64,000 nt of DNA from an uncultured Gammaproteobacteria bacterium (GTDB lineage Bacteria > Patescibacteriota > Patescibacteriia > JACQRZ01). A model generated the notes under the pieces. The model saw only the letters and a program-made list of their open reading frames with translations. It was not told the origin of the DNA and made no database searches. Positions 2,312-24,016 of the stretch are shown here, in pieces. Numbering within the stretch: position 1 is the stretch's first letter; each line of letters starts with the position of its first letter. The translations under genes and the position numbers were made by a program. The stretch covers positions 22,637-86,636 of the forward strand of contig CAZUKY010000002.1 in the NCBI GenBank assembly GCA_964621085.1, given 5' to 3'.

Positions 2312-2318
2312 GTATTAT

Positions 2319-2669
2319 ATGAGCACATGGAAAGTTCTTATTGCAGTGATTTTTTTCTTGACACTTCTTTTCGCAAGTGTCGACCCAATCCTCGCTGCAA
2401 AGCTCGACGATCCGCTGAATATCGGCGAGAACAACAAGGGTATCCAGATCGTCGTCGGGCGGTTTCTCAAAGGACTGCTGGGGATATCGGGTGTTGTGGT
2501 GCTGCTGATGTTTGTCCTCGGGGGCTTTCAACTCCTTACCTCGGCTGGCGACAAGAAAAAATACCAGCAAGGAACAACGACGCTCTGGTGGGCCGCCGTC
2601 GGCATCCTGACGGTATTCGGCAGCTACGCGATCGTCGAGTTCCTCCTACGATCGTTTATTTCAGGGTGA
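2319..2669 (+). CDS. VirB2/TrbC-like pilin-family protein, paralog 2
   Basis: Signal-peptide-like N-terminus (MSTWKVLIAVIFFLTLLFASV). Core is LLGISGVVVLLMFVLGGFQLLTSAGDKKKYQQGTTTLWWAAVGILTVFGSYAIVEFL. The ATG at 2298 is an alternative start. Confidence 0.5.
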   Translation: MSTWKVLIAVIFFLTLLFASVDPILAAKLDDPLNIGENNKGIQIVVGRFLKGLLGISGVVVLLMFVLGGFQLLTSAGDKKKYQQGTTTLWWAAVGILTVFGSYAIVEFLLRSFISG

Positions 2670-2670
2670 T

Positions 2671-3381
2671 ATGAGCACGAGTCTGAAAAAAGTTTCATTG
2701 ATCATTGCGACAGCATGGCTGATCGGAGGCTTTTCGTTTGTGTCTGCAGAGGAAAGTCCGTCGGGTAGTGGCACATTTTTTTCATCGGACGGCAATTTGG
2801 AACCTTCCAACCCTTATGAAAACGATTACCAATCAGGAGTTCCTTCGACTTTGCAAAGCGCTCCGCTTTCCAATCCTTCACAGGTAGGACAGCTGAACTT
2901 TTGTCCTGGCGCCGGTACCACGCGGGCCGATATCACGACCGAGCAGGCATGCAACGCGTACTGCACGCATGAGAACAACTTTGAAAGGATGGAGGGCTTC
3001 GGTCTGAACAAATCGAAGTATGCCGACGTCGACTGCTGCTGCTGGAAGGGAAGCGTCACATCGCAACCCAAAAAAGTCACCTGCAGCGAGCTGCCGGATG
3101 GCACGTGCGAGCTTGGCAATACATTGAAAGGAGACGTCGCCAAGACGCCGCAGGAGTTTGCGGGGCGGATCATCAAGAACTTCTTGGGGATCGTCGGCGT
3201 GCTTGCACTCGTTATGTTTATGTGGGGCGGCGCGCAGATCATGATGTCTCGCTTCGGCGGCGACGATAAGACAAAATACCAGCAAGGCATCCAGACGCTT
3301 GTCGGCGCAGGCGCGGGCCTCGTTGTGATCTTTGGCAGCTACGCGCTCGTCGAGTTTCTCTTCTCCCGCCTCTTGTCGTAA
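2671..3381 (+). CDS. VirB2/TrbC-like pilin-family protein, paralog 3, with N-proximal Cys-rich insert
   Basis: Signal peptide MSTSLKKVSLIIATAWLIGGFSFVSA. Cys-rich segment (CPGAG..CNAYCTHEN..DCCCWKG..CSELPDGTCELG) precedes the core IVGVLALVMFMWGGAQIMMSRFGGDDKTKYQQGIQTLVGAGAGLVVIFGSYALVEFL. The ATG sits 1 nt after the upstream stop, consistent with translational coupling. Confidence 0.55.
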   Translation: MSTSLKKVSLIIATAWLIGGFSFVSAEESPSGSGTFFSSDGNLEPSNPYENDYQSGVPSTLQSAPLSNPSQVGQLNFCPGAGTTRADITTEQACNAYCTHENNFERMEGFGLNKSKYADVDCCCWKGSVTSQPKKVTCSELPDGTCELGNTLKGDVAKTPQEFAGRIIKNFLGIVGVLALVMFMWGGAQIMMSRFGGDDKTKYQQGIQTLVGAGAGLVVIFGSYALVEFLFSRLLS

Positions 3382-3384
3382 AAG

Positions 3385-3417
3385 TATCCCCATTCCGTCC
3401 GGAAAATGTGGTATACT
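3385..3417 (+). promoter_or_regulatory. Putative promoter: TATCCCCA, 16-nt spacer, extended -10 TGGTATACT
   Basis: Read directly: tatcccca(3385-3392), 16 nt, tggtatact(3409-3417), upstream of paralog 4. The same bipartite motif recurs at 5884 and 13113. Confidence 0.45.
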
Positions 3418-3468
3418 AACCATTACGTGAATAACTTTTTAAGCAGAGCCTTTGGCTCAATCGATCGT

Positions 3469-3855
3469 ATGGCACTTCGCAGGCTTTTCGCAGCCCTCTC
3501 TCTGGCCGGCATTCTCCTCGTTCCCGCAGGCGTGTTGGCGCAGGATCTCGACCCGTCGGATCCTGAAACGTTCCGGAAATACAATCCGCCCGTTTCTTCG
3601 AACGTCGAGACGGATATCGGCATGATCGCGAAAAACATCATCGGCGTCGTTATGGGTTTCCTTGGACTGTTCGCCGTGGTCATCATTATCATTGCGGGTT
3701 TCAAGTGGATGACGGCGGGCGGTGATGAGAAAAAGGTTGAAGAGGCGAAAAACCAACTCATCCAAGGCGCGATCGGTCTTGTCATCATCATCGCCTCCTG
3801 GAGCATCGCCTTTTTCGTCATCGAGCAGATCGCAAAGGTTGTCGGTGGGCAGTAG
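3469..3855 (+). CDS. VirB2/TrbC-like pilin-family protein, paralog 4
   Basis: Start chosen at MALRRLFAALSLAGILLVPAGVLAQD (signal peptide), downstream of the predicted promoter. Core is IIGVVMGFLGLFAVVIIIIAGFKWMTAGGDEKKVEEAKNQLIQGAIGLVIIIASWSIAFFVIEQI. Confidence 0.5.
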   Translation: MALRRLFAALSLAGILLVPAGVLAQDLDPSDPETFRKYNPPVSSNVETDIGMIAKNIIGVVMGFLGLFAVVIIIIAGFKWMTAGGDEKKVEEAKNQLIQGAIGLVIIIASWSIAFFVIEQIAKVVGGQ

Positions 3856-3874
3856 GGCATAAAACAACCTCCCC

Positions 3875-4324
3875 ATGCTTTTTCAAAAGACAGCATTCCT
3901 CTTTTTCGCGTGGAGCGCTGTCTTTTTGTTTTTCTTCGCCCCCATCAGCGGCACATTTTCGTTTGTTGATGCAGCCGAGTCTTCATCCGGGCCCGTGAAT
4001 TTGAATGTCTCCGGCACGGGCCTGGAAGACACCGGCAAGGCGGCTGGATTCAAAGAGGGGCAAAACCAATTGCCAGGGTATATCGGCACCGTCCTCAAGG
4101 CATTTTTTGGCGTGTTGGGTATTATCTTCCTCGCCTTGACGATCTATGGCGGCCTGCGGTGGATGCTCTCGCAGGGAAACGACACCGAAATCAAAGGCGC
4201 CCGCGATACGATTATTAGCGCGGTTATCGGCATTGCCATCGTTGCAGCATCCTATGCGATTACAGACTTTGTCATCGACCAGCTTGTAAAAAGCGGGGTA
4301 AAACAGGAGATTATCGGCGAGTGA
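3875..4324 (+). CDS. VirB2/TrbC-like pilin-family protein, paralog 5
   Basis: Hydrophobic N-terminus. Core is FFGVLGIIFLALTIYGGLRWMLSQGNDTEIKGARDTIISAVIGIAIVAASYAITDFVIDQL. Confidence 0.5.
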   Translation: MLFQKTAFLFFAWSAVFLFFFAPISGTFSFVDAAESSSGPVNLNVSGTGLEDTGKAAGFKEGQNQLPGYIGTVLKAFFGVLGIIFLALTIYGGLRWMLSQGNDTEIKGARDTIISAVIGIAIVAASYAITDFVIDQLVKSGVKQEIIGE

Positions 4325-4325
4325 T

Positions 4326-4724
4326 ATGCAAATCCTTTCTTCCATCATTTCTCGTGGAGCCGTGTTTGTGGGCGTATTCTTGCCGGCAACGGCAGTTTTT
4401 GCGGACAATCCTCCTGCAAACACAATAAAAGGAAATCTGAAAGAGAGTGCTAGTAGCGTATTTTCGCAAAGCGAGATTGCTGTTGTCATCGGCTCGATCG
4501 TCACTGCGCTTCTTGGAGTTCTGGGTGTCGTTTTTTTGGCGCTGTTGATCTATGGCGGCTTTCTGTACATGACTGACCTGGGCGATGAGAAGCAGGCGGC
4601 AACAGCAAAGAAACTGATCACGAATGCAACCATCGGGTTGGTTATCGTTGCAGTCTCGTTCGCGGTGACGAAGTTCGTGCTGGATAGCATCGGCGGGGCT
4701 GCCGGAGTAAGTGGTAGTTTTTAA
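4326..4724 (+). CDS. VirB2/TrbC-like pilin-family protein, paralog 6
   Basis: Signal peptide MQILSSIISRGAVFVGVFLPATAVFA. Core is LLGVLGVVFLALLIYGGFLYMTDLGDEKQAATAKKLITNATIGLVIVAVSFAVTKFVL. Start lies 2 nt after the upstream stop. Confidence 0.55.
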   Translation: MQILSSIISRGAVFVGVFLPATAVFADNPPANTIKGNLKESASSVFSQSEIAVVIGSIVTALLGVLGVVFLALLIYGGFLYMTDLGDEKQAATAKKLITNATIGLVIVAVSFAVTKFVLDSIGGAAGVSGSF

Positions 4725-4732
4725 GACCGTAT

Positions 4733-5317
4733 ATGGCAGAAATAAAGAAAAGAACAGTAACGCGTGCTCGTACGGGCCGCAGCGGTCAGGCAACACGAAA
4801 GCCGCGCGTCGCGGCTCGTCCTGTGCGTCGGAAGCGGCCCGCGATCTCGGCGGAGAATATTCCACAACTCGAAGCGGTCATCATAGAAGAGGGGAGAAGT
4901 GCAGAGCCTGGCCACATCATCTTTATGCAGCGCACAGGCGTCGTTCTCAACCGTGCGTTTAGCGTCACGACGGCGACAGTCCTTTCCCTTTCCCTTATGC
5001 TGGGTGGCATGACAACGTTCGCCGAAGGACTCAAATTTAGTGACGTGCAAAACAATGTCGGCGCCGAACTTGATCTGGCGACAGTCATCGCGAATATCAT
5101 CAACGTATTACTTGGTTTACTGGGTGTCGTTTTTGTGTTATTTGTTATCTATGGCGGGTTTCTCTGGATGACAGACAAGGGCGATGAGAAGCAGGCAGAG
5201 CACGCGAAAGCCGTCCTGAAAAACTCCACCATCGGCGTTGTCATCGTTGCGCTTGCCATGGCGATTTCCAACTTTGTGATCAGCACTCTGGCAACCAAGG
5301 TCTTTACAGGCGAGTAA
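4733..5317 (+). CDS. VirB2/TrbC-like pilin-family protein, paralog 7 (possible internal start at 4925)
   Basis: Core is LLGLLGVVFVLFVIYGGFLWMTDKGDEKQAEHAKAVLKNSTIGVVIVALAMAISNFVISTL. The first 64 codons are strongly basic and atypical. The Met at 4925 (MQRTGVVLNRAFSVTTATVLSLSLML) would give a signal-peptide-like start. Confidence 0.45.
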   Translation: MAEIKKRTVTRARTGRSGQATRKPRVAARPVRRKRPAISAENIPQLEAVIIEEGRSAEPGHIIFMQRTGVVLNRAFSVTTATVLSLSLMLGGMTTFAEGLKFSDVQNNVGAELDLATVIANIINVLLGLLGVVFVLFVIYGGFLWMTDKGDEKQAEHAKAVLKNSTIGVVIVALAMAISNFVISTLATKVFTGE

Positions 5318-5370
5318 GACTTTCGTACGCTTTTTTTCAAAATAGCTATAATCTCAATAATTTTGATCAT

Positions 5371-5811
5371 ATGAAAAAAGCTATTGCACTTTTCGGCGCA
5401 ACTGCTGCGATCTGCTCGCTTCTTGTGCCGGTTGCCGTTTTCGGTGCCGAAACGACTGTTTCTGGTTCGCTCGGCGGATCGACCGCCCCAACTGGAATAG
5501 GACAGGCGCTCCAGGGCGGCGCAACCGCTGAACTGGAGAAAGAGGACCTGTTTAAGACAAAGACCGACTTCATCACGATTGTTGCCAATATTATCAGTGT
5601 TATTTTGGGCTTCCTCGGACTGATCCTGGTCGCCTTCATCATCTATGCCGGCTTCCTCTGGATGACGGACAACGGCGACGAGAAACGCACCGAAACAGCA
5701 AAGAATATTCTCCGCAACTCGATTATCGGCCTCATCATCATCGTGGTAGCGTATGCGATTTCAAACTTTGTCGTGAGTACGCTGGCAACTGACGTCTTGA
5801 AGCAGCAGTAA
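5371..5811 (+). CDS. VirB2/TrbC-like pilin-family protein, paralog 8
   Basis: Signal peptide MKKAIALFGATAAICSLLVPVAVFGA. Core is ILGFLGLILVAFIIYAGFLWMTDNGDEKRTETAKNILRNSIIGLIIIVVAYAISNFVVSTL. A TATAAT -10 lies at 5347-5352 upstream and a terminator follows downstream. Confidence 0.55.
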   Translation: MKKAIALFGATAAICSLLVPVAVFGAETTVSGSLGGSTAPTGIGQALQGGATAELEKEDLFKTKTDFITIVANIISVILGFLGLILVAFIIYAGFLWMTDNGDEKRTETAKNILRNSIIGLIIIVVAYAISNFVVSTLATDVLKQQ

Positions 5812-5832
5812 GGAAGGCAAAAAGAAAGTAAA

Positions 5833-5861
5833 AGAGCGTCTGCGTACAGACGCTCTTTTTC
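5833..5861 (+). terminator. Rho-independent terminator closing the pilin-like array
   Basis: agagcgtctg / cgta / cagacgctct 10-bp stem followed by a T-run (ttttc). Confidence 0.7.
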
Positions 5862-9131: not shown

Positions 9132-9232
9132 CAACCACTCATCTAATCCGCAGCATAAGGCGAAGCGATGACGTGATCCGTATATGAGCAAACGGAATCA
9201 GCGCTCTCGCTTCGCCTCTTCAGTAGAAAGGC

Positions 9233-13069: not shown

Positions 13070-13112
13070 AAAGAGGAGCTCTAGGGCGGAGCGCTGATGC
13101 GGTGAATGAACC

Positions 13113-13148
13113 TATCCCCACAACAAACAGAACAGGGAGTGGTATGAT
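13113..13148 (+). promoter_or_regulatory. Putative promoter: TATCCCCA, 19-nt spacer, TGGTATGAT
   Basis: tatcccca(13113-13120), 19 nt, tggtatgat(13140-13148). Lies about 70 nt upstream of the giant protein gene. Confidence 0.45.
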
Positions 13149-13217
13149 AGAAGTGCCGTTCTTATTTGAACGGCAGGGCGTTTACCGCCATTTTAGGCAA
13201 CGTATATCAAGAGGCGC

Positions 13218-16200
13218 GTGCCCGTATTTTTGAGACATCATCGGCTGGTTTTCGCTGCCGGGGTTTTGGCCCTTGGCGGGTTTTTTGGCGTTCCCGTACT
13301 TGCGAATGCTCTTAGCGTCATGGTGGCAACGCCATTTCGAATCAGTACGCCTATCAACGGAACGGTGGTCACACTGCCGGAAGCGAAAGTGACGGTTCCA
13401 ATTACTGTTGTGTCGCCAGGCGACCAATATGCTGGCGTTACGGTTACCGCAGAGATCCGTTCGGCAAGCGGTGATGTGCGGACGCTTCCGATGAGTGTTT
13501 CATCGACCGGTGCAGCCGGAACGACATTTTCTGCGCAGTGGACTGCCACGACCGTCGGGAGCTACCTGATCACTGCGCGCGCAACGCAGTCCGGGTATAA
13601 TGACCGGGTCAGTGCGCCGGTTCGCGTGAATATCATCTCTCCGTCCGGAAACGCATCAGGGCGCATTTCCGGCGCTTTTACGCAGAGTGCCGCCAAGCAA
13701 GCCGGAAAATTCGACGTCATTCCTGGAACAGATGCAGGTGCAATTCCTGGTGACTACCGCCGGCCGCGCATTGGGCCCGTTCTGCCGCCGATCTTTGAGT
13801 TCAGTATTTCGGAACCGCTTGAACAGAAAGTGATGATGGATGTCAGTCTTTACGGCGCCGAAGCGCGAAAAGCCGCGGCAGAGAACTCGCGATTCCTGCT
13901 TGATTGGAGTGCAAATACTATTGCTCGCGAGCTGTCTGCCGGTGCACAGGAACGCATTCCGATCTATCGGAATGGCGCTGCTATTGTGCTCTCTGTTGGG
14001 CAAGTCAACCAAAATGCATACATCGATCTCTACTCCGCGCCGTACTATGACGGAGTTGCCGATGATATCGAGGATCCGATAAAATCAGTTCCCGGTTTTC
14101 AGAAACTGAAGGCCTGTCCGAATGCAGTCTCGTGCATTTTTTCTTTGGGGACAGCCAAGAACGGCCGGCATATCGTAGTCGCTCGTGTCAGTGCGAATGG
14201 CATCTCGCGCTTCTCATATCGTCTTGTCGAGGTGCGCGGGCAGAATGCGGCGCCGATTGTTGCAATGAGTCTTCTGAGCGATCAGAAACCATTTCTCCTG
14301 CCGCAAAAATTGAACATCCGAGTAGATGTGGCAGATGCTGACTCGGATCGCAATGCCGCTGGCAGCCCCATCGAGCGAGTGATTATTTTTGCGGGAGACA
14401 AAAAGATTGCCGAACTCGAAAAGCCAACACAAAATATTAATACGCGCACGGAAAAATTCAATTCTCTTTTTAAAGATCTCGATTTTTCGACGTACGCCAC
14501 ACTGCAGACGTATGCGGCCGAGTGGAAGGTTGAAAGCGGCCGCCATGACCTACGCGCGGTCGCAATCGACACCGAAGGCATGCCGTCAGATCCCTTTGTT
14601 ATTAAGGATTTCATTGCAACCGAGCGGCCGAAAGTTTCTGATCTTATCGTCGTCGGAAAGGAGCGTCCGTCGGATAGCGGTCCGTGGATCGTGCAAGAAG
14701 GAGAGGAGTTCACGTTGCAAGCAAAAGCGACAGACGACGGACGCATCGTGTCGATGGCATTTACGAGCGAACAAAAGGCGGCAGGCGGCGGATCCGCCTC
14801 GCCAGTTTCCGGTGAAGACAATCTGTATCGTCTCACCGTAAAGGATCGCGCCGCCGGCGCTGAATACGTATACGCCGGCATTGCACAGGATAACGAGGGG
14901 GTTACCAACGATCCTCTGCCGCGGATGACCGTCAAGATGAATAAGAAGCCGGATATCCGAGATCTGTCCCGTGATGCCGAGGAGTATCAGCCGAATACAA
15001 AAGTAACGCTTGCCGCACTTGCAAAGGACATCGATAGCGCGCTTTCATCCGTCGAGCTCGTTGATGCAAAGACAGGAGCCCGCATCGATTTCAAAGAAAA
15101 TATCGGCGCTTCAAAAAATACCGATTACGCCTACCGCTTCGAGTGGGTGCCGCCATGGAATGAAGATGCGAAAAATGTCGATCAGAGCGCGATGCACTCG
15201 CTTAAGCTCATCGTCCGGGATGCGGACGGCGGCGTTCGCGAGGCGACCTTCCCGACGGTGACCGTTCGCAACCGTGCGCCGTCCGTCACCAAATTTTCCG
15301 CCACAAAGGCGGTGTATCAGGATACCGAGCCCGTCGTCGTATCACTTGAGGCAATCGATAACGACAGTGGCATGAACGGCGTCACATTTGTCTTGAAAAA
15401 CACCGCCGGAACACTCAGTAAAAATTTCATTCTCAATGCCCCGACGCGGCCGGTGTCAGGCATTGATGTACGACGAGGCGGGGTGTATGAGGCCGAGATA
15501 AAAAATCTTGCGCCGGACTCCTACATCATAACGGCGATCGCTTCGGATATCGCTTCGCCCGCAAAAGCATCACCCGAACAGGTGGTGAGTGTCCGTGTCA
15601 ACGCGCCGCCGACGGCAGAAGGCCTGACGGTTTCCACTCCGCTCGTCCAACCGAACGTGCCCGCGACTTTTTCGATTATCGCGCGGGACAGCGACAGCGA
15701 CGTGAAAAGCGACAGTCGGATCGGGTCGGTGATGCTGCTGCGCGATGGTGTGGAAATCGCCGTCATGCGTCTGCGCGCTGGCAGTGGCGACACCTATGAA
15801 GCGAGCTGGACGCCGACCCTGTGGTCGCCAGACATTCCCGATCAGGCACAGCAGTATATCTCGAAAGGTTTTTCCGTACGGATCGAGGATACGGATAGGC
15901 GGCGCATCGAAAAAAAGACAGACATAACAGTAACCGTCAAGAATGATCCGCCTGCGCTTGTGCCGGATGGCAAGCAGCTGACCGAGCGGAGCGTCTATCA
16001 GAAGGGCGAGACCGTGACACTCTCGGCCGCTGTCAGTGATGCGGATAGCGGCGTTGCGCGCCTTCAGTTTTTCGCGAATGGGACGGCGATTCATACCATC
16101 GACAATCCTTCCCAAAAAGTTTCGTTCCAGTGGAAGCCGACTCCCGGAAGTTATGCCCTGACGGCAACGGCGACCGATCGCGCGAAACCGGTCAAGACGG

Positions 16201-19200
16201 CACAGTATCCGTCCGGAACCAATACGGTCGCAATCAAGGTCAACAATCCGCCGACGATCGATCGCATCGAGGTTGCGCCGAGTGCGCGCAAAACGGCGGA
16301 GTACCAGCCGAACGAACCGGTGAGCGTGACGGTCTACGCGACAGATGCGGACGGAAGCATTTCTCAGTCGGAGGTGCGCCTCATTGATGAGAAGGGAGCA
16401 AATCTCCCTATTGCGCTCAAGAAGGCAACACAAGCCGCAACAAAAGACGGCAAGGGAAACACGTATGCCTTCCAGATCGAGTGGCGTCCGACGTGGGCAG
16501 AGGATGGGGCGAATACAAACCAGTCGATGGTCTTTCCGTTCCGCGCGAGCGTGAAAGATAGCGACGGCGCGCAGCCCGAGGTTCTCGAGCAGTCGCGCGT
16601 AATAGTGAAGAACAGCGCACCGACAATTTCGGCTGCGGTAGCAAAGAGCGCGGCGAGCGACGGAAGATATTACGAGGGTGTCGACATTGCGCTTTCCGCG
16701 ACCGTGAAGGACGCCGAAGGAGAGGTTGGCGGCGTTACCTTCTATCGCGAGGAAGATAAAACGGCAATCGGCACTGGCGCGCGCGGCACGGCAGATACCT
16801 TCTCATACCTTTGGAAAAACGCGGCCGCAGGCACGCACCAGCTTTCCGTAAAAGCGATCGATAAAGCCCAACCGCCAAAGACCGCGCGGTATCCGGCAGC
16901 GGCAGGGCAGTTTATTCCGATTAAGGTGCTGGCAAAGCCGTCGATCGTATCCTTTACGGGTCCGACTCCCACCGTCGTTCATCTGAGCGGCGGAAACACA
17001 GGAACGGCGTCAATTCCGTTGGAATTGAAGGTGTCGGATCCGGACGGCATTGTGGCAAAGGCCGAGATCATCGGCAAGGGTGCGATGGCATCCGTGGGCA
17101 GCGGCACATATCGGTTGACGGTGTCGGAAACCGAACAAAAGATCCACTCCTATCGGGCGCGCCTCACCGACGCGATCGGCAGGACGTATGACTCGACGGT
17201 TGTCGCGGTGCGCGTCAACAAGCTTCCGACCGCAGCGATCGTGTCGCCGGCGGAAGCGGCAGTGTATTATCCAGGAACATCAGTCACGGTTACGATTGAC
17301 GCAGCCGATCCTGACGGTTCTGCTGACGGTGCGTCTGCAGGACCGGCAGAGAGCGCTAGATTGCGCGTAACGCATGGCGGCGCGACACAGGAATATCCTG
17401 CGCAGGCAGCGGGCGTGAACCGCTATACTGCAACCTTCAAAGTCGAGACAGAGGGATCTTATTCGCTTACGGCGATTTCCCGCGATAGAGATGACAAAGA
17501 CTCCCCTCTGTCTGCATCGCGGACGATCGTCGCGCAAAATGCAACGCCCGCAGTCAGCGATCTGAAGAGCGTGAAGAGCGTCTATCAGACCGGCGAGAAT
17601 GTAACGGTGTCACTCGATGCGCTGGATGCGGACAGCGGCATGGCGCGCGTCGAGTTCCTGTTGAACGGGAAGCAGACCGGCGGCGGCGCAATTTCTGAGC
17701 GAAAGGTGTCGGTAACAGCTGCCTCTGCTGGAAATGGATGTGCGGATAAGAATAAGAAGTGCACATATACCGCGAATTTCAGCGGCATTCCGGCTGGCGA
17801 GTACTCGGTGCGTGCGGTTGCATTTGACAAGGAGACTCCCGAAAAATTCGCAGCGACCGGAACAGCGGTATCCATGAAAGTTCACCGCACGCCGATCATC
17901 AGCGCATTCTCGGCAGGGAAGCCTCTCTATCAGAAAGGAGAGCGAGTGACTGTTTCGGCTACTGTGCAGGCGGACAACGGCATTGCGGGGAGCGGGTCGG
18001 CTAGTTTTGTGGAGTTCACCGCGAATGGCGCAAGAAAAGCAGTGCGGTATCCATCATCAGGCAACTGTTCGGCGGCATCATGCACGTTCAGCAGTGTCGA
18101 TCTCGGCGTTCTTTCGGACGGTGCGACCTATACGCTTAGCATTCGCGCCGTCGATACGGCAGGGAAGGCGAGCGCGACCGGCCAGTCTGGACAGGCAGCG
18201 ACCGCATCCGTCAAGGTGAATACGCCGCCGGCCGTTTCGGTAGCCGCAGCAGCACAGGGAAGAGATGCGGCAAATCAAGAGATCCGTTCGGATATTCCCG
18301 TAACAATTACGATTGCGCCCCGCGACAGTGACGGACAGATCGCTTCTGTGACACTGACGCAAGAGTACACGCCCTCGGGCTCATCAGCAGCGACGCGAAC
18401 CGTCGAGACGGCAACGCCGGGAAGTCGCCCTTCCGGTTGGGGGTATGACGCGCAGAGCGGAAACTTCACCCGAACGATCACGCCTGCCGCGGGATCGTAC
18501 AGCCTAACAGCTGTCACGCATGACACCGATGGCGCGCCGAGCGCGGTATCGAATACGATCGCGTTTATCGGAAGAAATGAAAAGCCCTCGATTGCGAGTA
18601 TGAATGCCAGCAAGGGCGTCTATCAGCAGGGTGAGTCGATCGGCGTTGAGGTGAAGGCGAAAGATGTTGATAGTGGCATGAAAGAAGTGGCATTTGTTCT
18701 CGGCGGTGATACGCGTGCCGTTCCAGCGACACAAGCGGCTGGCGGCGGTTGCGGTACGCGGGATAAGGAGTGCGTCTACGCGACAAGCTTTTCGAGTCGC
18801 AGTCCCGGCACCTATACGATTACGGCAACTGCTCGCGATACCGTGAATCCGCCTGGAGAGGCGGGCAGGACGGCAAGTTTCCGCGTGAATGCTGCTCCGT
18901 CCGGACGCATCTCTGCTCCCCAAACCGTCCAGATGAATGCAGGATTTACACTGATCCTGGATGCGACCGACAGCGACAGCAAATCGTCCGGTCCGGCAAG
19001 CGCATCAAATGGCATCAAGAGTGTTTCCTTCTCCGGTCCCGGCGTTGACAACGCGAGAATTGCGGTGAGCAACGTGACGGCAGGCGGCGCGCGCTACTCG
19101 TTGGCAGTTTCCGGGCAAGAGGCAGGCGGCCCCAAGTCGTATTCGGCAACAATCACAGACTGGGACGACAATAGCTTTACGACACCCGTCGCCGTTGTCG

Positions 19201-21761
19201 GCGTGCAGCGTCCGCCGATCCTTACGAATATGAAGACAGACAAGCGGATCTACCAAAGAGGAGATGATGTTGTCGTTTCGATTTCCGCCCAGGCCGACAA
19301 TGGGATGGATACGCTTGAGTTTTCAACCGACAGCGGCGCGATTGTAGCGGCGGCGGTAAGTAGTGCGTGCGTATCGCGCGAGTGCTCGTACTCGGCAACG
19401 TTTACGGGGCTTGCTGATGGGCGGTCGTACACGATCACGGCGACGGCAAAGGACCGAGCAGGTAAAATCGCAAGCACGACTGCGCAGATTACAATCAACC
19501 GTCCGCCGATCCTTACGATCCCGACGAGTTACTACGCGTTCCAGCAGGGTGATGATGCGAATGTTTCAGTTACTGTGCAGGCAGACAACGGCATGGATTT
19601 TGTCGAGTTCAAAGCTGCTGGTGCAACCGTGAGAACGAATGCGCCGAGTAACGACTCATGCGTCCGTTCCAGTTGCGAGTTTAGGGGGACATTTAAGGGA
19701 CTGTCAGCAGGACAAACTCATCGAGTCAGCATCACGGCACAGGATAAGGAAAAGAAGACGGCCGCAGGTACGCTTGATATCCGCGTGATAGCGCCGCCTC
19801 AGATTACGAATTTCAAACCCGGCAAGAGCGTGTATCAGGTGAACGAGTCGGTAAGCGCATCATTGGAAGTGCAGGCGGAAAATGGCATGGCGAATGCCGG
19901 CGACTCGCCAGCGATAAAAAACAGCAGCTATGTTGACTTCCAGGTAGACGGCGCAAGTAGGCGAGACTATCCCAGCCGCGGCGACTGCCGATCGGCACCA
20001 TGTTCCGTATCAACAGCGTTCGGTGCGCTCCCCGCAGGTAAAACCTATACACTATCCGCCACGGCGCGCGACAAGGCAGGGAAAGAGGCGGGTGCAACAA
20101 CAAGCGTAAAGGTGAATGCGCCGCCGAGCGGTGGGTTTGTCCGCACGCCCGAGGTTGTCGCAATTGGTAATGCACTCACACTGACGCTCGAGGTTGAGGA
20201 TGGCGACAGCGCGGACGTATCCGCAACATTGTCGGGCCCGTACAACCCGCGGCAGGTCAGCGTCAGCGGCTCAGGGAGGAAAAAAACCTACGTCTTCACG
20301 ACCGACGGCTTGCCGCTGAACACCGCAACGCCGACGACATATTCATATAGCGCGACGATTACAGACAATGAAGGGGGAAGTGCGGCGATCAGCCATGCCG
20401 TGCGCGTCAATCGCGTTCCCACACTCTCGCTCTCTTCATCTCCGACAGGCCCTCGCCTCAGGCAGGGTACGAGCGTCACACTCACAATGACTCCGAGTGA
20501 CCCTGATGGCACTATTTCGAGCGTCGATCTCTCGATCAATGGTGCGACTGAGACAATCACGCGTGCCGGTGATGGTTCATACAAGAAGACGTTTACGCCC
20601 AATCCTGGAGGATACTCGGTATCGGCTTCTGTAAAGGATACCGATGGCGCGCGTGCGACATCGGAGATCAGTTTTAATGTAAATGCAGCGCCGTCGGCGA
20701 AAATTGTAAACACGTCACGCAATGTGTGGAATGGCCAGTCGTTCACGGCACGGCCGACAGAACCGGCCGTCAATCCGGGCGAGTGGATCAGTGTGGACGT
20801 GGAGGCGACAGACTCCGACCGGGGCATTCGGGAGATTACGGCGATATTTCAAGGAGTGACACAGACGCTGTACACGACGGGATACTCGGATTGCGTCGCT
20901 GGTGCCGCCTGCGCAAGACGGTTTGATTTTCATGCTCCCTCCGGCGGGTGGCGGCCCGGAACGCACGAGCTGATCATCGAGACATACGACCGCGAGCCGC
21001 CGGACGCGCGCATGAGCGCACGGGTGAGTAAATCGATCCGCGTGAATGCGCCGCCTGTCGTCTCGTGGTATACGGTCAATATGCCAGGCCGCGGATACGT
21101 CTGGTGGTCATGGTGGGGAGGAGGCGCTCCGCCGGCACAGAGTATGAAGCTGGGTGAGGGCACAGCGTATCTTTACATGACAGCATACGATGATGGCGAG
21201 CTTGATAACAACACGGCATTCTTCGTAATCAATGGGAGTACTATCAAAGCTACGCATTACAGTACAAGTGGACAAACGCGCTATTATTACGCGACATATA
21301 CGCCATCACGGAGCGGACAATACACAATTACCGGACAAGTTGGCGATACGCAAGGCGGACTTACAGTACTTGGTAGAGATAAGGCTTTTGTGCTGACGGT
21401 CATAAATGATCCTCCGGTCGTATCAAATTTCACCCGCAAACTTGTTAGTAATTACCCGTACTGCGTACTCAATCTTTCTATGGAAGCCGCCGATGCTGCA
21501 CCGGGTGTCAGTTGGATGGGATTTTTATCGCTTTATAATTACTGGTCATGGCGATGGCCGGCATGGAGATGGGGTGGAGGGAAGTATGAAGCAAATGTAA
21601 CCTTCACAGAACCAGGAACACATTTGATTTCTGCGCGTGCGGCAGATCATGAAGGGGGATATACTGCGACGAGCGATGCCTACGTGTACATTGGTGACCG
21701 AGGATGGATCTGGGACTGGTGGAGTGGATGGCGTAGAGGCACCTATTGCGCGTATTACTAG
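13218..21761 (+). CDS. Giant secreted surface protein (2847 aa) of tandem bacterial Ig-like (Big-type) domains with Trp-rich C-terminal modules
   Basis: Signal peptide MPVFLRHHRLVFAAGVLALGGFFGVPVLANA. More than 20 repeats of ~100 aa with the pattern VN-x-PP..YQxGExVxVsxxAxDxDSGxxxVxF..NG...G.Y.LTA.A.D, joined by VNAPP / VKNSAP / VNRPP linkers. The last three modules carry W-x-W-x-W motifs (VWWSWWGGG, WSWRWPAWRWGGG, WIWDWWSGWRRG). Confidence 0.6.
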   Translation: MPVFLRHHRLVFAAGVLALGGFFGVPVLANALSVMVATPFRISTPINGTVVTLPEAKVTVPITVVSPGDQYAGVTVTAEIRSASGDVRTLPMSVSSTGAAGTTFSAQWTATTVGSYLITARATQSGYNDRVSAPVRVNIISPSGNASGRISGAFTQSAAKQAGKFDVIPGTDAGAIPGDYRRPRIGPVLPPIFEFSISEPLEQKVMMDVSLYGAEARKAAAENSRFLLDWSANTIARELSAGAQERIPIYRNGAAIVLSVGQVNQNAYIDLYSAPYYDGVADDIEDPIKSVPGFQKLKACPNAVSCIFSLGTAKNGRHIVVARVSANGISRFSYRLVEVRGQNAAPIVAMSLLSDQKPFLLPQKLNIRVDVADADSDRNAAGSPIERVIIFAGDKKIAELEKPTQNINTRTEKFNSLFKDLDFSTYATLQTYAAEWKVESGRHDLRAVAIDTEGMPSDPFVIKDFIATERPKVSDLIVVGKERPSDSGPWIVQEGEEFTLQAKATDDGRIVSMAFTSEQKAAGGGSASPVSGEDNLYRLTVKDRAAGAEYVYAGIAQDNEGVTNDPLPRMTVKMNKKPDIRDLSRDAEEYQPNTKVTLAALAKDIDSALSSVELVDAKTGARIDFKENIGASKNTDYAYRFEWVPPWNEDAKNVDQSAMHSLKLIVRDADGGVREATFPTVTVRNRAPSVTKFSATKAVYQDTEPVVVSLEAIDNDSGMNGVTFVLKNTAGTLSKNFILNAPTRPVSGIDVRRGGVYEAEIKNLAPDSYIITAIASDIASPAKASPEQVVSVRVNAPPTAEGLTVSTPLVQPNVPATFSIIARDSDSDVKSDSRIGSVMLLRDGVEIAVMRLRAGSGDTYEASWTPTLWSPDIPDQAQQYISKGFSVRIEDTDRRRIEKKTDITVTVKNDPPALVPDGKQLTERSVYQKGETVTLSAAVSDADSGVARLQFFANGTAIHTIDNPSQKVSFQWKPTPGSYALTATATDRAKPVKTAQYPSGTNTVAIKVNNPPTIDRIEVAPSARKTAEYQPNEPVSVTVYATDADGSISQSEVRLIDEKGANLPIALKKATQAATKDGKGNTYAFQIEWRPTWAEDGANTNQSMVFPFRASVKDSDGAQPEVLEQSRVIVKNSAPTISAAVAKSAASDGRYYEGVDIALSATVKDAEGEVGGVTFYREEDKTAIGTGARGTADTFSYLWKNAAAGTHQLSVKAIDKAQPPKTARYPAAAGQFIPIKVLAKPSIVSFTGPTPTVVHLSGGNTGTASIPLELKVSDPDGIVAKAEIIGKGAMASVGSGTYRLTVSETEQKIHSYRARLTDAIGRTYDSTVVAVRVNKLPTAAIVSPAEAAVYYPGTSVTVTIDAADPDGSADGASAGPAESARLRVTHGGATQEYPAQAAGVNRYTATFKVETEGSYSLTAISRDRDDKDSPLSASRTIVAQNATPAVSDLKSVKSVYQTGENVTVSLDALDADSGMARVEFLLNGKQTGGGAISERKVSVTAASAGNGCADKNKKCTYTANFSGIPAGEYSVRAVAFDKETPEKFAATGTAVSMKVHRTPIISAFSAGKPLYQKGERVTVSATVQADNGIAGSGSASFVEFTANGARKAVRYPSSGNCSAASCTFSSVDLGVLSDGATYTLSIRAVDTAGKASATGQSGQAATASVKVNTPPAVSVAAAAQGRDAANQEIRSDIPVTITIAPRDSDGQIASVTLTQEYTPSGSSAATRTVETATPGSRPSGWGYDAQSGNFTRTITPAAGSYSLTAVTHDTDGAPSAVSNTIAFIGRNEKPSIASMNASKGVYQQGESIGVEVKAKDVDSGMKEVAFVLGGDTRAVPATQAAGGGCGTRDKECVYATSFSSRSPGTYTITATARDTVNPPGEAGRTASFRVNAAPSGRISAPQTVQMNAGFTLILDATDSDSKSSGPASASNGIKSVSFSGPGVDNARIAVSNVTAGGARYSLAVSGQEAGGPKSYSATITDWDDNSFTTPVAVVGVQRPPILTNMKTDKRIYQRGDDVVVSISAQADNGMDTLEFSTDSGAIVAAAVSSACVSRECSYSATFTGLADGRSYTITATAKDRAGKIASTTAQITINRPPILTIPTSYYAFQQGDDANVSVTVQADNGMDFVEFKAAGATVRTNAPSNDSCVRSSCEFRGTFKGLSAGQTHRVSITAQDKEKKTAAGTLDIRVIAPPQITNFKPGKSVYQVNESVSASLEVQAENGMANAGDSPAIKNSSYVDFQVDGASRRDYPSRGDCRSAPCSVSTAFGALPAGKTYTLSATARDKAGKEAGATTSVKVNAPPSGGFVRTPEVVAIGNALTLTLEVEDGDSADVSATLSGPYNPRQVSVSGSGRKKTYVFTTDGLPLNTATPTTYSYSATITDNEGGSAAISHAVRVNRVPTLSLSSSPTGPRLRQGTSVTLTMTPSDPDGTISSVDLSINGATETITRAGDGSYKKTFTPNPGGYSVSASVKDTDGARATSEISFNVNAAPSAKIVNTSRNVWNGQSFTARPTEPAVNPGEWISVDVEATDSDRGIREITAIFQGVTQTLYTTGYSDCVAGAACARRFDFHAPSGGWRPGTHELIIETYDREPPDARMSARVSKSIRVNAPPVVSWYTVNMPGRGYVWWSWWGGGAPPAQSMKLGEGTAYLYMTAYDDGELDNNTAFFVINGSTIKATHYSTSGQTRYYYATYTPSRSGQYTITGQVGDTQGGLTVLGRDKAFVLTVINDPPVVSNFTRKLVSNYPYCVLNLSMEAADAAPGVSWMGFLSLYNYWSWRWPAWRWGGGKYEANVTFTEPGTHLISARAADHEGGYTATSDAYVYIGDRGWIWDWWSGWRRGTYCAYY

Positions 21762-21772
21762 GGAGTGAATAT

Positions 21773-24016
21773 ATGCAGAGCGGATTACAATGGATTCAAA
21801 AGAATAGCCGTGCTGCCTTTCTTGCACTTTTTGTCGTTGGTGTGCTTGGGGGTACATACCTACTTGTATCGTATCGCGGTACCGGTCCGGAGCAGGGCGG
21901 CCGGGACGGTTTTGTTTTTTTTGATGGTGCCTGGCACCCTGCCTTGAAAGAAGGGGATAGTGCATCTCTGAAACGTCTCTTACCGGTGCGTTTTTCATCA
22001 GCAGGCGGAGATGAGGTTGTCTCGCTATCGGCAGGCGAGGTTCTCAAGGGCAGCATATCCGTCGATTGGCTCTCGCCTGCTGCTCAGAGCATCACTGCCT
22101 CTGTTTTTGACCGGGAAACGTATGCAAAAATCGGTCAGGGAGTTTTTTCTCTCAAGCGAAATGAGATCTCTTCCGAGGGTTTTGTCCCATTTGAGGGGAC
22201 GGTCACGTACAGCGCCGCATCAAGCACGGACGGCTTTCTCCTTTTTGATGCAGGAGCTTCTCTTGCTGGAGAAACGCCAGATGCGCACGAAAAAGCTGAC
22301 GAAAGGGAAATAACAGCATACAGCATTTCGGTACTCCTCATTCCATCCGGGACTAATAAAAAACTTGTTGAGGGATTGAAGCAGTCGAAACAGTATGCAG
22401 CCCAAAATGCGTCAATTCGGATTATTGCATCGGGTGCGGAGGGAGTGGCGTTAGGTGAAGGGGGTGTTGGTGATGAAGCGGATGTCGTGAAGATAGAAAA
22501 AGTCATTGGAACTCAGACAGGAGCGGCAGGAGAACAAATGGTGATCAATTCTGGCGAAATGCTGAGGGGCTTGCTGCGCACTGATATTCTCGCCGCACAA
22601 TCAGTCACCACAGTCGCCGCTACTGTCGTTGACTCAAAAAAATTGAAGACGATCGGAAGTGGGACACTCTCCCTCAAGCGAGGCGAGACCTCTTCTGATG
22701 GCTTTGTCCCCTTTGAAGGCACGGTCACGTATAGCGGCGCATCAAGCACGGACGGATTTCTCCTGTTTGAGGCGGATGGGACTTCTGTCGGATCCAGTAT
22801 TCCGGTGATCCTCATTCCATCCGGCACAGATAGAAAGCTTGTCGAGGGGCTAAAAATGTCAAAGCAATACAACGCCTCTGAGGCGGTGATCCGCATCCTT
22901 CCGGGCAATGAGACGGAGCAGATGCCCGCCGGCCTGAAGCAGTCTTTTTCCGGTTCACTTCGCACTGATATTCTCGCCTCACAATCAGTCACCACAGTCG
23001 CCGCTACTGTCGTTGACTCAAAAAAATTGAAGACGATCGGAAGTGGGACACTCTCCCTCAAGCGAGGCGAGACCTCTTCTGATGGCTTTGTCCCCTTTGA
23101 AGGCACGGTCACGTATAGCGGCGCATCAAGCACGGACGGATTTCTCCTGTTTGAGGCAGGAAAGTTCCGAACACCGCAAGGATCGGAAGCAACTGCGGGG
23201 GGTGCAAGTGTTCCTTTTCCACTTGTCGCTCTTCCCGTGTTGGGTAATCAGCAAAAGCAAGAGCAGTCATCGATCCAGCCGAGTCGCTTTGACACGGCAG
23301 ATGCATCAATCCGCCTCTTCCCCTCAGGGGCAGGCACTGGTGATGGGTCGCAGACTTCTCTTCGGGGAGCTATTCATAAGGATGTGCTTGGTGCGCAACC
23401 CACCCCATCTATTTCTGCGCATATCATAGATCCAAAGACGACCTCCGTGATCGGCAGCGGCTCGTTTTCACTTAAACATGATGAAATCGGGAATGACGGG
23501 TTTGTCCCGTTCGATGGACAGATCACACAGAACGGCTCGCTCGGCTCGGAAGGAATCATGCTTTTCCAGATGGGTGCGGAAAAAGACGCGTTCTATGCCG
23601 CACTCGTTTCATTAGACTCTAAGGGACGAATAGCTGTTGTGCAGACTCGTCTTGAAGAGAAGCCGCCGGAAGCAGCGACTCCTCCGCCTTCCTCATCTTC
23701 ATCATCAGCGAACGCGGCATCTCAACAGGATGCAATAAAACTGGAACGAATTTCTGTCGTGCCGCGTGTCGGGCAAGGACCGCTTACACCGCCGCTTGCG
23801 AAGGATGGGGAGTGCCGTATTACCGGATGCAATAGGGAAGTTTGCGCTGATCGGGATTCACACTCTTCATGCGAACAGTACCTGCCCGAGTATGCATGCT
23901 ACGCAGGCGCCGTCTGCGAGCGCCAAAGCAACGGGGCGTGCGGATGGACACAGACAAAGGAACTCGCGCAATGCATTGAGGGTGTTCAGCGTGCAGGAAC
24001 CCAATCTTCACAGTAG
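21773..24016 (+). CDS. Membrane-anchored protein with four Gmad2-like Ig-fold repeats and a C-terminal Cys-rich module
   Basis: GGAG Shine-Dalgarno sits 8 nt upstream of the ATG at 21773. N-terminal TM (AAFLALFVVGVLGGTYLLV). Four repeats end in GFVPFEGTVTYS/GFVPFDGQITQN...GFLLFEA, a pattern reminiscent of GerM-associated Gmad2 domains. C-terminus is CRITGCNREVCADRD..CEQYLPEYACYAGAVCERQSNGACGW. Confidence 0.5.
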   Translation: MQSGLQWIQKNSRAAFLALFVVGVLGGTYLLVSYRGTGPEQGGRDGFVFFDGAWHPALKEGDSASLKRLLPVRFSSAGGDEVVSLSAGEVLKGSISVDWLSPAAQSITASVFDRETYAKIGQGVFSLKRNEISSEGFVPFEGTVTYSAASSTDGFLLFDAGASLAGETPDAHEKADEREITAYSISVLLIPSGTNKKLVEGLKQSKQYAAQNASIRIIASGAEGVALGEGGVGDEADVVKIEKVIGTQTGAAGEQMVINSGEMLRGLLRTDILAAQSVTTVAATVVDSKKLKTIGSGTLSLKRGETSSDGFVPFEGTVTYSGASSTDGFLLFEADGTSVGSSIPVILIPSGTDRKLVEGLKMSKQYNASEAVIRILPGNETEQMPAGLKQSFSGSLRTDILASQSVTTVAATVVDSKKLKTIGSGTLSLKRGETSSDGFVPFEGTVTYSGASSTDGFLLFEAGKFRTPQGSEATAGGASVPFPLVALPVLGNQQKQEQSSIQPSRFDTADASIRLFPSGAGTGDGSQTSLRGAIHKDVLGAQPTPSISAHIIDPKTTSVIGSGSFSLKHDEIGNDGFVPFDGQITQNGSLGSEGIMLFQMGAEKDAFYAALVSLDSKGRIAVVQTRLEEKPPEAATPPPSSSSSSANAASQQDAIKLERISVVPRVGQGPLTPPLAKDGECRITGCNREVCADRDSHSSCEQYLPEYACYAGAVCERQSNGACGWTQTKELAQCIEGVQRAGTQSSQ
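22571..22770 (+). repeat. Intragenic direct repeat, copy 1 (~200 bp)
   Basis: Matches 22961-23160 with a single mismatch across ~198 nt (gccgcacaa vs gcctcacaa). Confidence 0.85.
22961..23160 (+). repeat. Intragenic direct repeat, copy 2 (~200 bp)
   Basis: Near-identical to 22571-22770 and in the same reading frame. Both copies encode a Gmad2-like repeat. Confidence 0.85.

Follow-up and report, generated by a model that had tools for sequence, protein, structure and literature searches.

A putative Sec-exported Ig-repeat fibre with a tryptophan-rich C-terminal end, encoded near a pilin array in a Patescibacteria bacterium

Introduction

Giant adhesin-like proteins made of immunoglobulin (Ig)-like domains are common. 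SiiE of Salmonella, LapA and the other Lap proteins, MpIBP and the extenders of Bap-type proteins all carry a long tandem array of bacterial Ig-like (BIg) domains, and in SiiE 53 such domains span about 175 nm, or about 3.3 nm per domain. Here we describe a 2847-aa protein with an array of the same kind, encoded in a 64,000-nt stretch of DNA (assembly GCA_964621085.1, contig CAZUKY010000002.1, positions 22,637 to 86,636) from an uncultured bacterium deposited under the Gammaproteobacteria. This whole stretch is referred to below as the window, and nucleotide positions are given in its coordinates. The C-terminal end of the giant protein carries three clusters of Trp residues, and its gene lies 7.4 kb from an array of VirB2-like pilin genes. 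We read the protein as a Sec-exported Ig fibre that is made together with the pilins and whose Trp-rich end acts as a binding patch, and we put the probability of this reading as a whole at about 0.5.

Host attachment in the ultra-small bacteria of the Candidate Phyla Radiation (CPR, or Patescibacteria) is largely unknown outside the Saccharibacteria. Adhesins are essential for epibiotic growth in Southlakia (PMC10633639). VirB2 arrays are widespread in Patescibacteria, although their function itself is unknown, and no PrgB-type adhesin has been detected alongside them (PMC12102498). The Big-domain proteins RSP and RSP2 target conjugative pili and favour conjugation (PMC11268884). The locus described here offers a concrete and testable candidate for attachment in this group: in a variable slot beside a pilin array, behind a copy of that array's conserved putative promoter, stands a giant Ig fibre gene that would link VirB2 arrays to a candidate adhesin.

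An Ig-repeat protein with an export signal

The giant open reading frame (ORF) runs uninterrupted from 13218 to 21761 on the + strand, with a GTG start, 2847 codons and a TAG stop, and an AAGAGG Shine-Dalgarno sequence lies 3 nt 5' of the GTG. In coordinates and length this agrees with a preliminary description of the gene, made from the sequence alone, which had also proposed more than 20 tandem Ig-like domains separated by VNAPP-type linkers. Both proposals held. By an iterated hidden Markov model (HMM) built on the protein's own sequence, 24 domains are recognised from aa 70 to aa 2814, each 90-133 aa long. Pfam Big_7 (PF17957) matches the protein with E=6.9e-42 (142.4 bits, cut-off 24.1), four stretches passing individually; other Ig-like Pfam families match below threshold. 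The linkers are of the (V/I)-x-V-N-x-P-P type. A strict [VI]-N-x(1,2)-P pattern gives 13 matches, most of them at domain boundaries, and looser variants raise the total to 28, some of these away from the boundaries.

The array begins with Ig-like domain D01 (13377..13637, + strand, aa 54-140; self-HMM match at aa 70-124, E=4.6e-9), which is followed by a non-repeat region (13638..14249, +, aa 141-344) that contains C300-x5-C306 and is not confidently Ig. No Pfam match, no homologue in the word-indexed search (queried with aa 125-365) and no significant PDB sequence match was obtained for this region, and its single-sequence AlphaFold2 (AF2) model is uninformative, with a predicted local distance difference test score (pLDDT) of 40. 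Judging by its sequence, the part from aa ~236 to 344 may be a degenerate 25th Ig-like domain. Domains D02-D22 (14250..21056, +, aa 345-2613) form the stalk, and the array closes with D23 (21105..21395, +, aa 2630-2726; self-HMM E=2.6e-12) and D24 (21396..21686, +, aa 2727-2823; E=1.7e-7).

Most domains have an acidic loop of the form D-x-D-[GS] or A-[DE]-N-G (25 matches). The protein also contains eight C-x4-7-C pairs, each forming a hairpin immediately N-terminal of the Y-x-x-x-F/W strand, and this number of paired cysteines fits an extracytoplasmic protein. Seven stalk domains (D12, D13, D15, D17, D18, D19 and D22) carry the hairpin as C-x4-6-C, and it is also present in unrelated Big_7 proteins such as P0013. 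The Y-x-x-x-W-x-P signature previously given for the repeats applies to only some of those in the N-terminal half of the protein, whereas many in the C-terminal half (D12, D13, D15, D17-D19) have F at the Trp position together with C-x4-6-C.

The N-terminus, MPVFLRHHR-LVFAAGVLALGGFFGVPVL-ANA followed by LS, has the features of a Sec-type signal peptide (13218..13310, +, aa 1-31): a basic n-region (RHHR), a hydrophobic core (LVFAAGVLALGGFFGVPVL), a P helix breaker at -6 and an AXA site. By the AXA rule the peptide looks cleavable between A-N-A and L, and the giant protein would accordingly be a substrate of Sec export. No other hydrophobic stretch occurs in the protein. The signal and the paired cysteines together lend support to the fibre envisaged in the preliminary description.

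Several known routes of surface retention were considered and rejected by Pfam, NCBIfam and motif tests, namely membership of the RTX (repeats-in-toxin), LPXTG, PEP-CTERM, type IX secretion system (T9SS), lipoprotein and wall-binding-module groups. The LPXTG-type pattern [LIVN]P.[TAS]G has no match in the giant protein, and no transmembrane (TM) segment is found at its C-terminus (maximum Kyte-Doolittle(19) value over the last 100 aa, 0.76); lacking both, the protein is ruled out as a substrate of LPXTG/sortase anchoring. Nowhere in the protein does the RTX expression GG.G.D match. Sorting tags of the PEP-CTERM, GlyGly-CTERM and other types are likewise lacking, with neither a PEP motif, a C-terminal TM segment nor an NCBIfam match, and Por_Secre_tail (PF18962 / TIGR04183) is absent from the Pfam and NCBIfam matches. 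Wall-binding modules (CW_binding_1/choline-binding, GW, WxL, SLH, LysM) gave no match at E<=0.01 in Pfam or NCBIfam, and no carbohydrate-binding module (CBM) family matched the protein in either collection.

Tryptophan clusters on the last two domains

The preliminary description held that the last ~250 residues differ from the repeats and make up three Trp modules, for which it quoted three strings. All three strings occur letter for letter in the protein (YVWWSWWGGGAPP, aa 2627-2639; YNYWSWRWPAWRWGGGKYE, aa 2773-2791; DRGWIWDWWSGWRRGTYCAYY, aa 2827-2847), and the clusters themselves are real. Sixteen of the 33 Trp residues of the giant protein fall within its last 260 aa, which is 9% of its length, and windows with at least four W in 12 aa occur at three places. 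When the protein was shuffled 20,000 times, three or more such clusters were never obtained and at least one appeared in 142 shuffles (0.7%), so that the clustering at the C-terminal end is highly non-random. Each cluster has exactly 5 W, 2-5 Y, 4-5 G and a small net positive charge. What did not stand is the idea of separate modules, since the region consists of the two Ig-like domains D23 and D24, and the clusters are insertions in them plus a tail.

To place the clusters, we set the C-terminal 252 aa against two-domain segments taken from the same protein, and these segments also served as a pseudo-alignment for an AF2 model of this region, structure prediction having been suggested in the preliminary description. 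The model has a mean pLDDT of 72 and shows two beta-sandwiches (about 70-83 for D23, about 75-85 for D24), with the clusters either modelled as hairpins or of low confidence. Cluster 1 (21066..21116, +, aa 2617-2633, SWYTVNMPGRGYVWWSWW) is an insertion of ~20 aa that no sister repeat has; it lies where D23 begins and has pLDDT <50. Cluster 2 (21543..21572, +, aa 2776-2785, WSWRWPAWRW) takes exactly the place that the Cys-Cys hairpin loop has in the sister repeats. AF2 models it as a beta-hairpin whose strands span model residues 181-186 and 188-190, where the block-mean pLDDT is about 75-85. Cluster 3 (GDRGWIWDWWSGWRRGTYCAYY) belongs to the C-terminal tail (21687..21758, +, aa 2824-2847, YIGDRGWIWDWWSGWRRGTYCAYY) that lies beyond the last strand; here AF2 predicts a hairpin prolonging the G strand (strands 221-238 and 242-251, pLDDT about 62). 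The only cysteines outside a C-x4-7-C pair are C2749 in D24 and C2844 in the tail, and from their positions in the sequence a disulfide tying the tail to D24 is plausible.

The specialised Trp-rich head modules that had been envisaged were not borne out by this model: the end of the protein consists of two ordinary Ig sandwiches with Trp-rich hairpins, without a recognisable lectin or CBM fold. A PDB sequence search with D24 and the tail returned chance matches only (E>=0.24). The Trp hairpins would represent a compact and apparently unique conversion of a generic Ig domain into a putative interfacial binder. Cluster 2, in which a disulfide hairpin has been swapped for a Trp-zipper-like one, may also be of interest for protein engineering.

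Relatives of the protein in sequence collections

The word-indexed search covers 5.8 billion clusters and the exhaustive phmmer search 1.84 billion representatives. In the word-indexed search no orthologue was found for the C-terminal 344 aa, and none for the full-length giant protein, which returned three domain-level matches at 23-25% identity. With the last 260 aa as query, phmmer found no orthologue; it returned the protein itself and 14 generic Ig-repeat matches, and none of the six of these that were inspected has Trp clusters. Scans of genome contigs and of metagenome contigs gave no orthologue of the giant protein or of its Trp end. The protein is a singleton at 90% identity, as are RpoC and IleRS from the same contig.

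A codon-level scan of metagenomes for WxWRWPxWRW gave at least 120 loci, nearly all of which are out-of-frame pseudo-translations of GC-rich DNA, rich in R, P, W and C. Two of the loci (L092 and L168) may encode real C-terminal peptides, in an unrelated context. A phage origin of the giant gene was also considered and rejected, there being no PHROG match.

A putative pilin-array promoter in front of the gene

A composite motif, TATCCCCA-N16-19-TGGTATRMT, has three copies in the window, at 3385, 5884 and 13113, all of them on the + strand. The copy 5' of the giant gene, P3 (13113..13148), consists of TATCCCCA (13113-13120), 19 nt and an extended -10 element, TGGTATGAT (13140-13148). This is an exact match, so the gene does have its own copy of the locus promoter motif, as had been claimed, and the motif is found in relatives as well. 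Copy P1 (3385..3417, +) lies inside the pilin array and, as the ancestral copy, is orthologous to the motif in three related loci, L003 (6270-6300), L004 (3883-3914) and L012 (6139-6170). In these loci the array opens with the large pilin-domain proteins, and the motif precedes the pilin gene next to them, which matches the position of P1. Copy P2 (5884..5919, +) stands 5' of orf1058, just after a strong putative terminator hairpin.

TGGTATRMT alone occurs nine times in the window against 0.53 expected. It looks like the general -10 element of the genome, with TATCCCCA as the specific part. Among the related loci, TATCCCCA-N14-21-TGGTAT is found in four, against about 0.09-0.13 expected, and three of these matches are at the orthologous pilin-array position; the match in L009 was treated as chance because its spacing and context differ. 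Conservation in relatives whose IleRS is only about 60% identical points to an ancestral pilin-array promoter, a function that we infer from position and sequence. The putative promoter appears to have been duplicated twice in this lineage, in front of the two operons of the island described below. An 8-mer, TGAACGGC, is common to the leaders after P2 (5943-5950) and P3, which suggests that these copies arose through a duplication that included part of the leader. TATCCCCA-N16-19-TGGTATRMT could also serve to define a pilin or surface regulon in the clade.

The spacing between TATCCCCA and the -10 element varies (16 vs 19 nt), and for this reason TATCCCCA may be a regulator site and not a -35 element. 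A scan with sigma-70 and terminator consensus sequences was at background (16 vs 14.1 expected; 26 vs 21.3) and carries no weight here. A 7-bp hairpin (13155..13174, +, GCCGTTC-TTATTT-GAACGGC) stands where the transcript from P3 is predicted to begin. The RNA fold of 13155-13235 has a minimum free energy of -26.2 kcal/mol (z = -2.3), and this hairpin is the sole element left in the centroid structure; it may have a role in stabilising or regulating the mRNA. Further upstream, between the last pilin gene and P2, a perfect hairpin with a 13-bp stem and flanking A- and T-runs (5830-5859) is probably a bidirectional intrinsic terminator that ends the pilin operon.

Host and surrounding genes

The window is chromosomal, with genes for IleRS, RuvA, FemAB, rpoB/rpoC, FtsK, RecA, EF-P, IF-2, IF-3, ClpP and RNase Y. 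The closest relatives of its IleRS, at <=63% identity, come from Uhrbacteria, Magasanikbacteria and other Patescibacteria metagenome-assembled genomes (MAGs), and on this sequence evidence the host is a CPR (Patescibacteria) bacterium resembling the Uhrbacteria or Magasanikbacteria. Many MAGs recorded as 'uncultured Gammaproteobacteria bacterium' (binchicken and SRP co-assemblies; L004, L008, L013, L016 and others) carry a Patescibacteria-like IleRS. L004 additionally has a CPR-type pilin array. Such Gammaproteobacteria record titles look taxonomically mislabelled.

The VirB2-like T4SS_pilin (PF18895) array at 2298..5811 (+) comprises seven small paralogues. An eighth T4SS_pilin/TrbC-like paralogue, a 656-aa ORF within 341-2311, combines a pilin domain with a long Cys-rich extension. 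Orthologous arrays of 6-7 genes are present in L003, L004 and L012, which are the nearest syntenic relatives and have the order solute-binding protein, pilin array, one minus-strand gene and ileS. Their single minus-strand gene encodes about 340-517 aa and has no Pfam match. Between these flanks the window has 18.2 kb (5955-24016) with four genes for large, putatively secreted proteins. Across 80 related loci around ileS, from which IleRS, RuvA and FemAB were recovered as controls, there is no Ig-repeat gene and no homologue of the four large proteins. The shared flanks, and the absence of these genes in relatives, indicate a lineage-specific island in a conserved slot. GC content at third codon positions is lower in the island genes (0.47-0.60) than in the housekeeping neighbours (0.62-0.72).

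The first of the four genes, orf1058 (5955-9131, +), has a signal peptide, repeated G-N-[VI]-G-I-G-T motifs and weak matches to PHROG tail-fibre families (E about 1e-8), with no Pfam, NCBIfam or PDB match. From these features its product appears to be a secreted protein of fibrous type, with P2 as the promoter copy of the gene. Next to orf1058 lies orf1278 (9233-13069, +), which is Cys/Trp-rich and also begins with a signal peptide. A Trp/Cys-rich cluster, WNAYWNNCWKGWPLNCEGRW, lies at aa 262-281 of its product (10016-10075), and orf1278 is the only other + strand ORF of the window with at least four W in 12 aa. Elsewhere in the window, a secreted-type subtilase (Peptidase_S8; 56520-58070, -) has a WWWW run (RASWWWWQPPYYLYP) at about aa 130-150 of its stop-to-stop ORF, N-terminal of the catalytic domain.

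Downstream of the giant gene, orf756 (21773..24016, +) starts 11 nt after the stop codon, with a GGGAG ribosome-binding site (RBS) inside the gap. From the ATG at 21773 it encodes 747 aa that include a TM anchor at the N-terminus and four ~100-aa repeats and end in a Cys-rich domain, and it has no Pfam or PHROG match. That its product is a partner or anchor of the giant protein is speculation on our part. Within orf756 a direct repeat of 200 nt (22574-22773 and 22958-23157) is 99% identical at a spacing of 384 nt, with a third copy 62% identical. This neighbour, and not the giant gene, is the place where repeat copy number could be mis-assembled.

A candidate contact fibre and its alternatives

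In the model that we favour, the giant protein would be exported by Sec to the cell surface, where its 24 (perhaps 25) Big_7-type Ig-like domains in series would form a semi-rigid rod and serve as a spacer. Scaling by the per-domain length of SiiE gives a rod of roughly 80-100 nm. The acidic loops may bind Ca2+, by analogy with SiiE. The three Trp/Gly/Arg-rich hairpin elements on the last two domains would form an aromatic and weakly cationic interfacial patch, and the most likely target of this patch would be the surface of a membrane, or a lattice of glycans, on a partner cell. The giant gene and orf756 would be transcribed together from the duplicated pilin-array promoter; by virtue of the shared promoter, the fibre would be made with the pilins as part of a cell-contact apparatus.

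A contact fibre is the function best supported by the CPR lifestyle, the essentiality of adhesins, the VirB2 arrays without a known adhesin, and the precedent of Big-domain proteins acting on conjugative pili. The host-cell attachment proposed in the preliminary description would fit both an episymbiotic CPR lifestyle and co-regulation with pilins. The Sec signal, the paired cysteines, the non-random Trp residues and the promoter copy speak for parts of the wider preliminary interpretation; its three specialised head modules do not survive. We consider it likely that the giant protein is a secreted surface fibre of the adhesin-extender kind. The assignment of the Trp end as a distal binding tip is more tentative, with a chance that we would place at even or slightly below. 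If the protein is merely a structural stalk, it is an ordinary giant adhesin-like protein. An improbable extension is that the fibre is the missing contact adhesin of the Patescibacteria VirB2-pilin/type IV secretion system (T4SS)-like apparatus, a functional analogue of PrgB or RSP that was acquired as a lineage-specific island and wired to the ancestral pilin promoter. Its Trp hairpins would then insert into the host cell surface or lock onto it, keeping the episymbiont about 80-100 nm away while the pilin system works, and would represent a new type of binding tip without a homologue in the collections searched.

Several observations weigh against the favoured model. Neither Pfam nor Foldseek detects a lectin, CBM or lipid-binding fold at the Trp end, and two of the three clusters are modelled with limited confidence (pLDDT <50 for cluster 1, about 62 for cluster 3). 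As no orthologue was found, there is nothing to show selection on the Trp elements, and no T4SS machinery (VirB4, VirB6, coupling protein) is present among the annotated genes of the window. The sole non-repeat region, aa 141-344, is N-terminal, and classical Gram-positive adhesins carry their ligand-binding head N-terminally. After signal cleavage, moreover, the N-terminus would have no other anchor, which favours the opposite orientation. With a cleaved signal peptide and no known C-terminal anchor, the Trp end could equally hold the fibre on its producer, the Trp/Arg-rich hairpins acting as a non-covalent C-terminal anchor in the cell's own membrane or on its own wall polymers, and D01 with aa 141-344 would then be the distal ligand-binding head. 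At 31 aa the signal peptide indeed has the canonical length, its helix-breaking P is at -6 and A-N-A fills -3 to -1. As the protein has no LPXTG motif, lipobox, C-terminal TM segment or known wall-binding domain, it would have to be retained in another way. Non-Ig sequence is confined to the N-terminal end, monoderm adhesins usually have their head there and their anchor at the C-terminus, and the C-terminus is the last part to leave the Sec channel, next to the membrane. Set against this, the clusters are spread across two domains (about 8 nm) and do not make one compact terminal anchor, and neither a binding fold nor a homologue can be recognised for the N-terminal region. Retention would also be possible with the Trp end distal, since an uncleaved signal with its 19-aa h-region could act as a signal anchor, or membrane-anchored orf756 could serve as a tether. 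On balance we regard the reversed orientation as unlikely, though well short of negligible.

A purely structural role for the clusters seems still more doubtful to us. They would then provide Trp-zipper-like stabilisation or lateral or end-to-end self-association of fibres, without ligand binding, and the giant protein could be a sheath or an S-layer-like scaffold and not an adhesin. The position of cluster 2, exactly where sister repeats have C-x4-6-C, is in keeping with this, as are the alternation of WSWRW-PA-WRW, which recalls the cross-strand Trp pairs of designed Trp zippers, and the failure to find a binding fold. Stabilisation alone, however, gives no reason for the clusters to occur at one end only (16 of 33 W in 9% of the length), clusters 1 and 3 replace no disulfide hairpin, and flanking Gly and Arg residues typify elements that form loops or lie at interfaces. 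The remaining alternative, that the gene is an artefact, either through mis-assembly or collapse of a repeat array or as an ORF without function, could draw on the MAG origin of the contig and on the protein being a singleton in all databases. It is contradicted by an independently assembled Logan contig from SRR5011273, which fully spans the giant gene with identical DNA and protein and equals the window at 12,408 of 12,408 nt. Tandem Repeats Finder (TRF) reports only two trivial micro-repeats in the gene (15-19 nt, periods 6 and 9) and no tandem DNA array of domain length, and the longest direct DNA repeats are <=53 nt, their non-reference copies being 61-90% identical to the reference copy. 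At the protein level, the mean pairwise identity of the 24 domains is 21.5%, with a maximum of 46.5% (D13 vs D19) and best partners that are mostly non-adjacent. The repeats are thus old, diverged and not homogenised, and they offer no substrate for repeat collapse and no sign of concerted evolution, two possibilities raised in the preliminary description that the diverged repeats and the identical second assembly rule out. The frame, moreover, is open over 8.5 kb and comes with a signal peptide, an RBS, a putative promoter and domain signatures that are conserved along its whole length. An artefact is effectively ruled out.

Relation to described adhesins and binding motifs

SiiE, the top Foldseek match, is one of the giant BIg adhesins, which the giant protein resembles in its long domain array and from which it departs in several respects. 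Compared with SiiE, LapA and MpIBP, the giant protein lacks RTX nonapeptides, a type I secretion system (T1SS) signal and adjacent T1SS genes (no ABC transporter, membrane fusion protein (MFP) or TolC gene is among those annotated in the window), and has an N-terminal Sec signal instead. RTX/T1SS adhesins belong to a diderm envelope, whereas the host here, placed in the Patescibacteria by its IleRS, is a monoderm-type CPR bacterium. The repeats of SiiE/LapA-type proteins are near-identical, in contrast to the low mean identity seen here, and where those proteins have lectin, vWFA or RTX terminal modules, the giant protein ends in Trp hairpins.

With the Big_7 proteins of Bacteroidota (the T9SS-secreted P0007 and P0009) the giant protein shares a bona fide Big_7 unit, including the optional Cys-Cys hairpin, at 23-25% identity over the repeats. 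This likeness is at the domain level only: the giant protein lacks the PF18962 domain that P0007 and P0009 carry, has no enzymatic or discoidin modules and comes from another phylum. A possible parallel is offered by the T4SS-associated surface Ig proteins RSP/RSP2 of IncHI plasmids and, in function, by PrgB of Enterococcus. The likeness would be a genetic tie between VirB2-type pilin genes and a large surface protein with Big domains; here the tie takes the form of adjacency and a shared putative promoter. In a Pfam-level comparison, however, only Ig-type families are found for the giant protein and no domain homology to RSP or PrgB, and its window contains no T4SS core genes.

The Trp clusters have their closest counterparts in composition, not in descent. 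The undecapeptide of cholesterol-dependent cytolysins (CDC; ECTGLAWEWWR), the flavivirus class II fusion loop (DRGWGNGCGLFGKG), indolicidin and puroindoline (WRWWKWWK) resemble them as short Trp/Gly/Arg-rich loops ending a beta-rich module, and cluster 3 even begins with DRGW, a resemblance that is compositional only. There is no homology, the domain context differs, and no pore-forming or fusion machinery accompanies the giant protein. With 5 W, 4-5 G and a net positive charge, each cluster has the make-up of an interfacial membrane binder. A second likeness is to GW and WxL modules, choline-binding repeats and the planar aromatic strips of type A CBMs, where exposed aromatic residues arrayed on beta structure bind glycan lattices or wall polymers; the clusters of the giant protein differ from these in being insertions of 12-20 aa and not domains, without a match to any of the families. 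By analogy with both groups, lipid binding and glycan binding by the Trp patch would each be compatible with its composition.

Taken together, these comparisons make the giant protein a Big_7 member at the domain level that lacks the defining secretion and anchoring features of the giant BIg adhesins. What is new relative to the described systems is the combination of a putatively Sec-exported Ig fibre in a CPR bacterium, orphan Trp-hairpin decorations at its terminus and apparent wiring to a pilin promoter.

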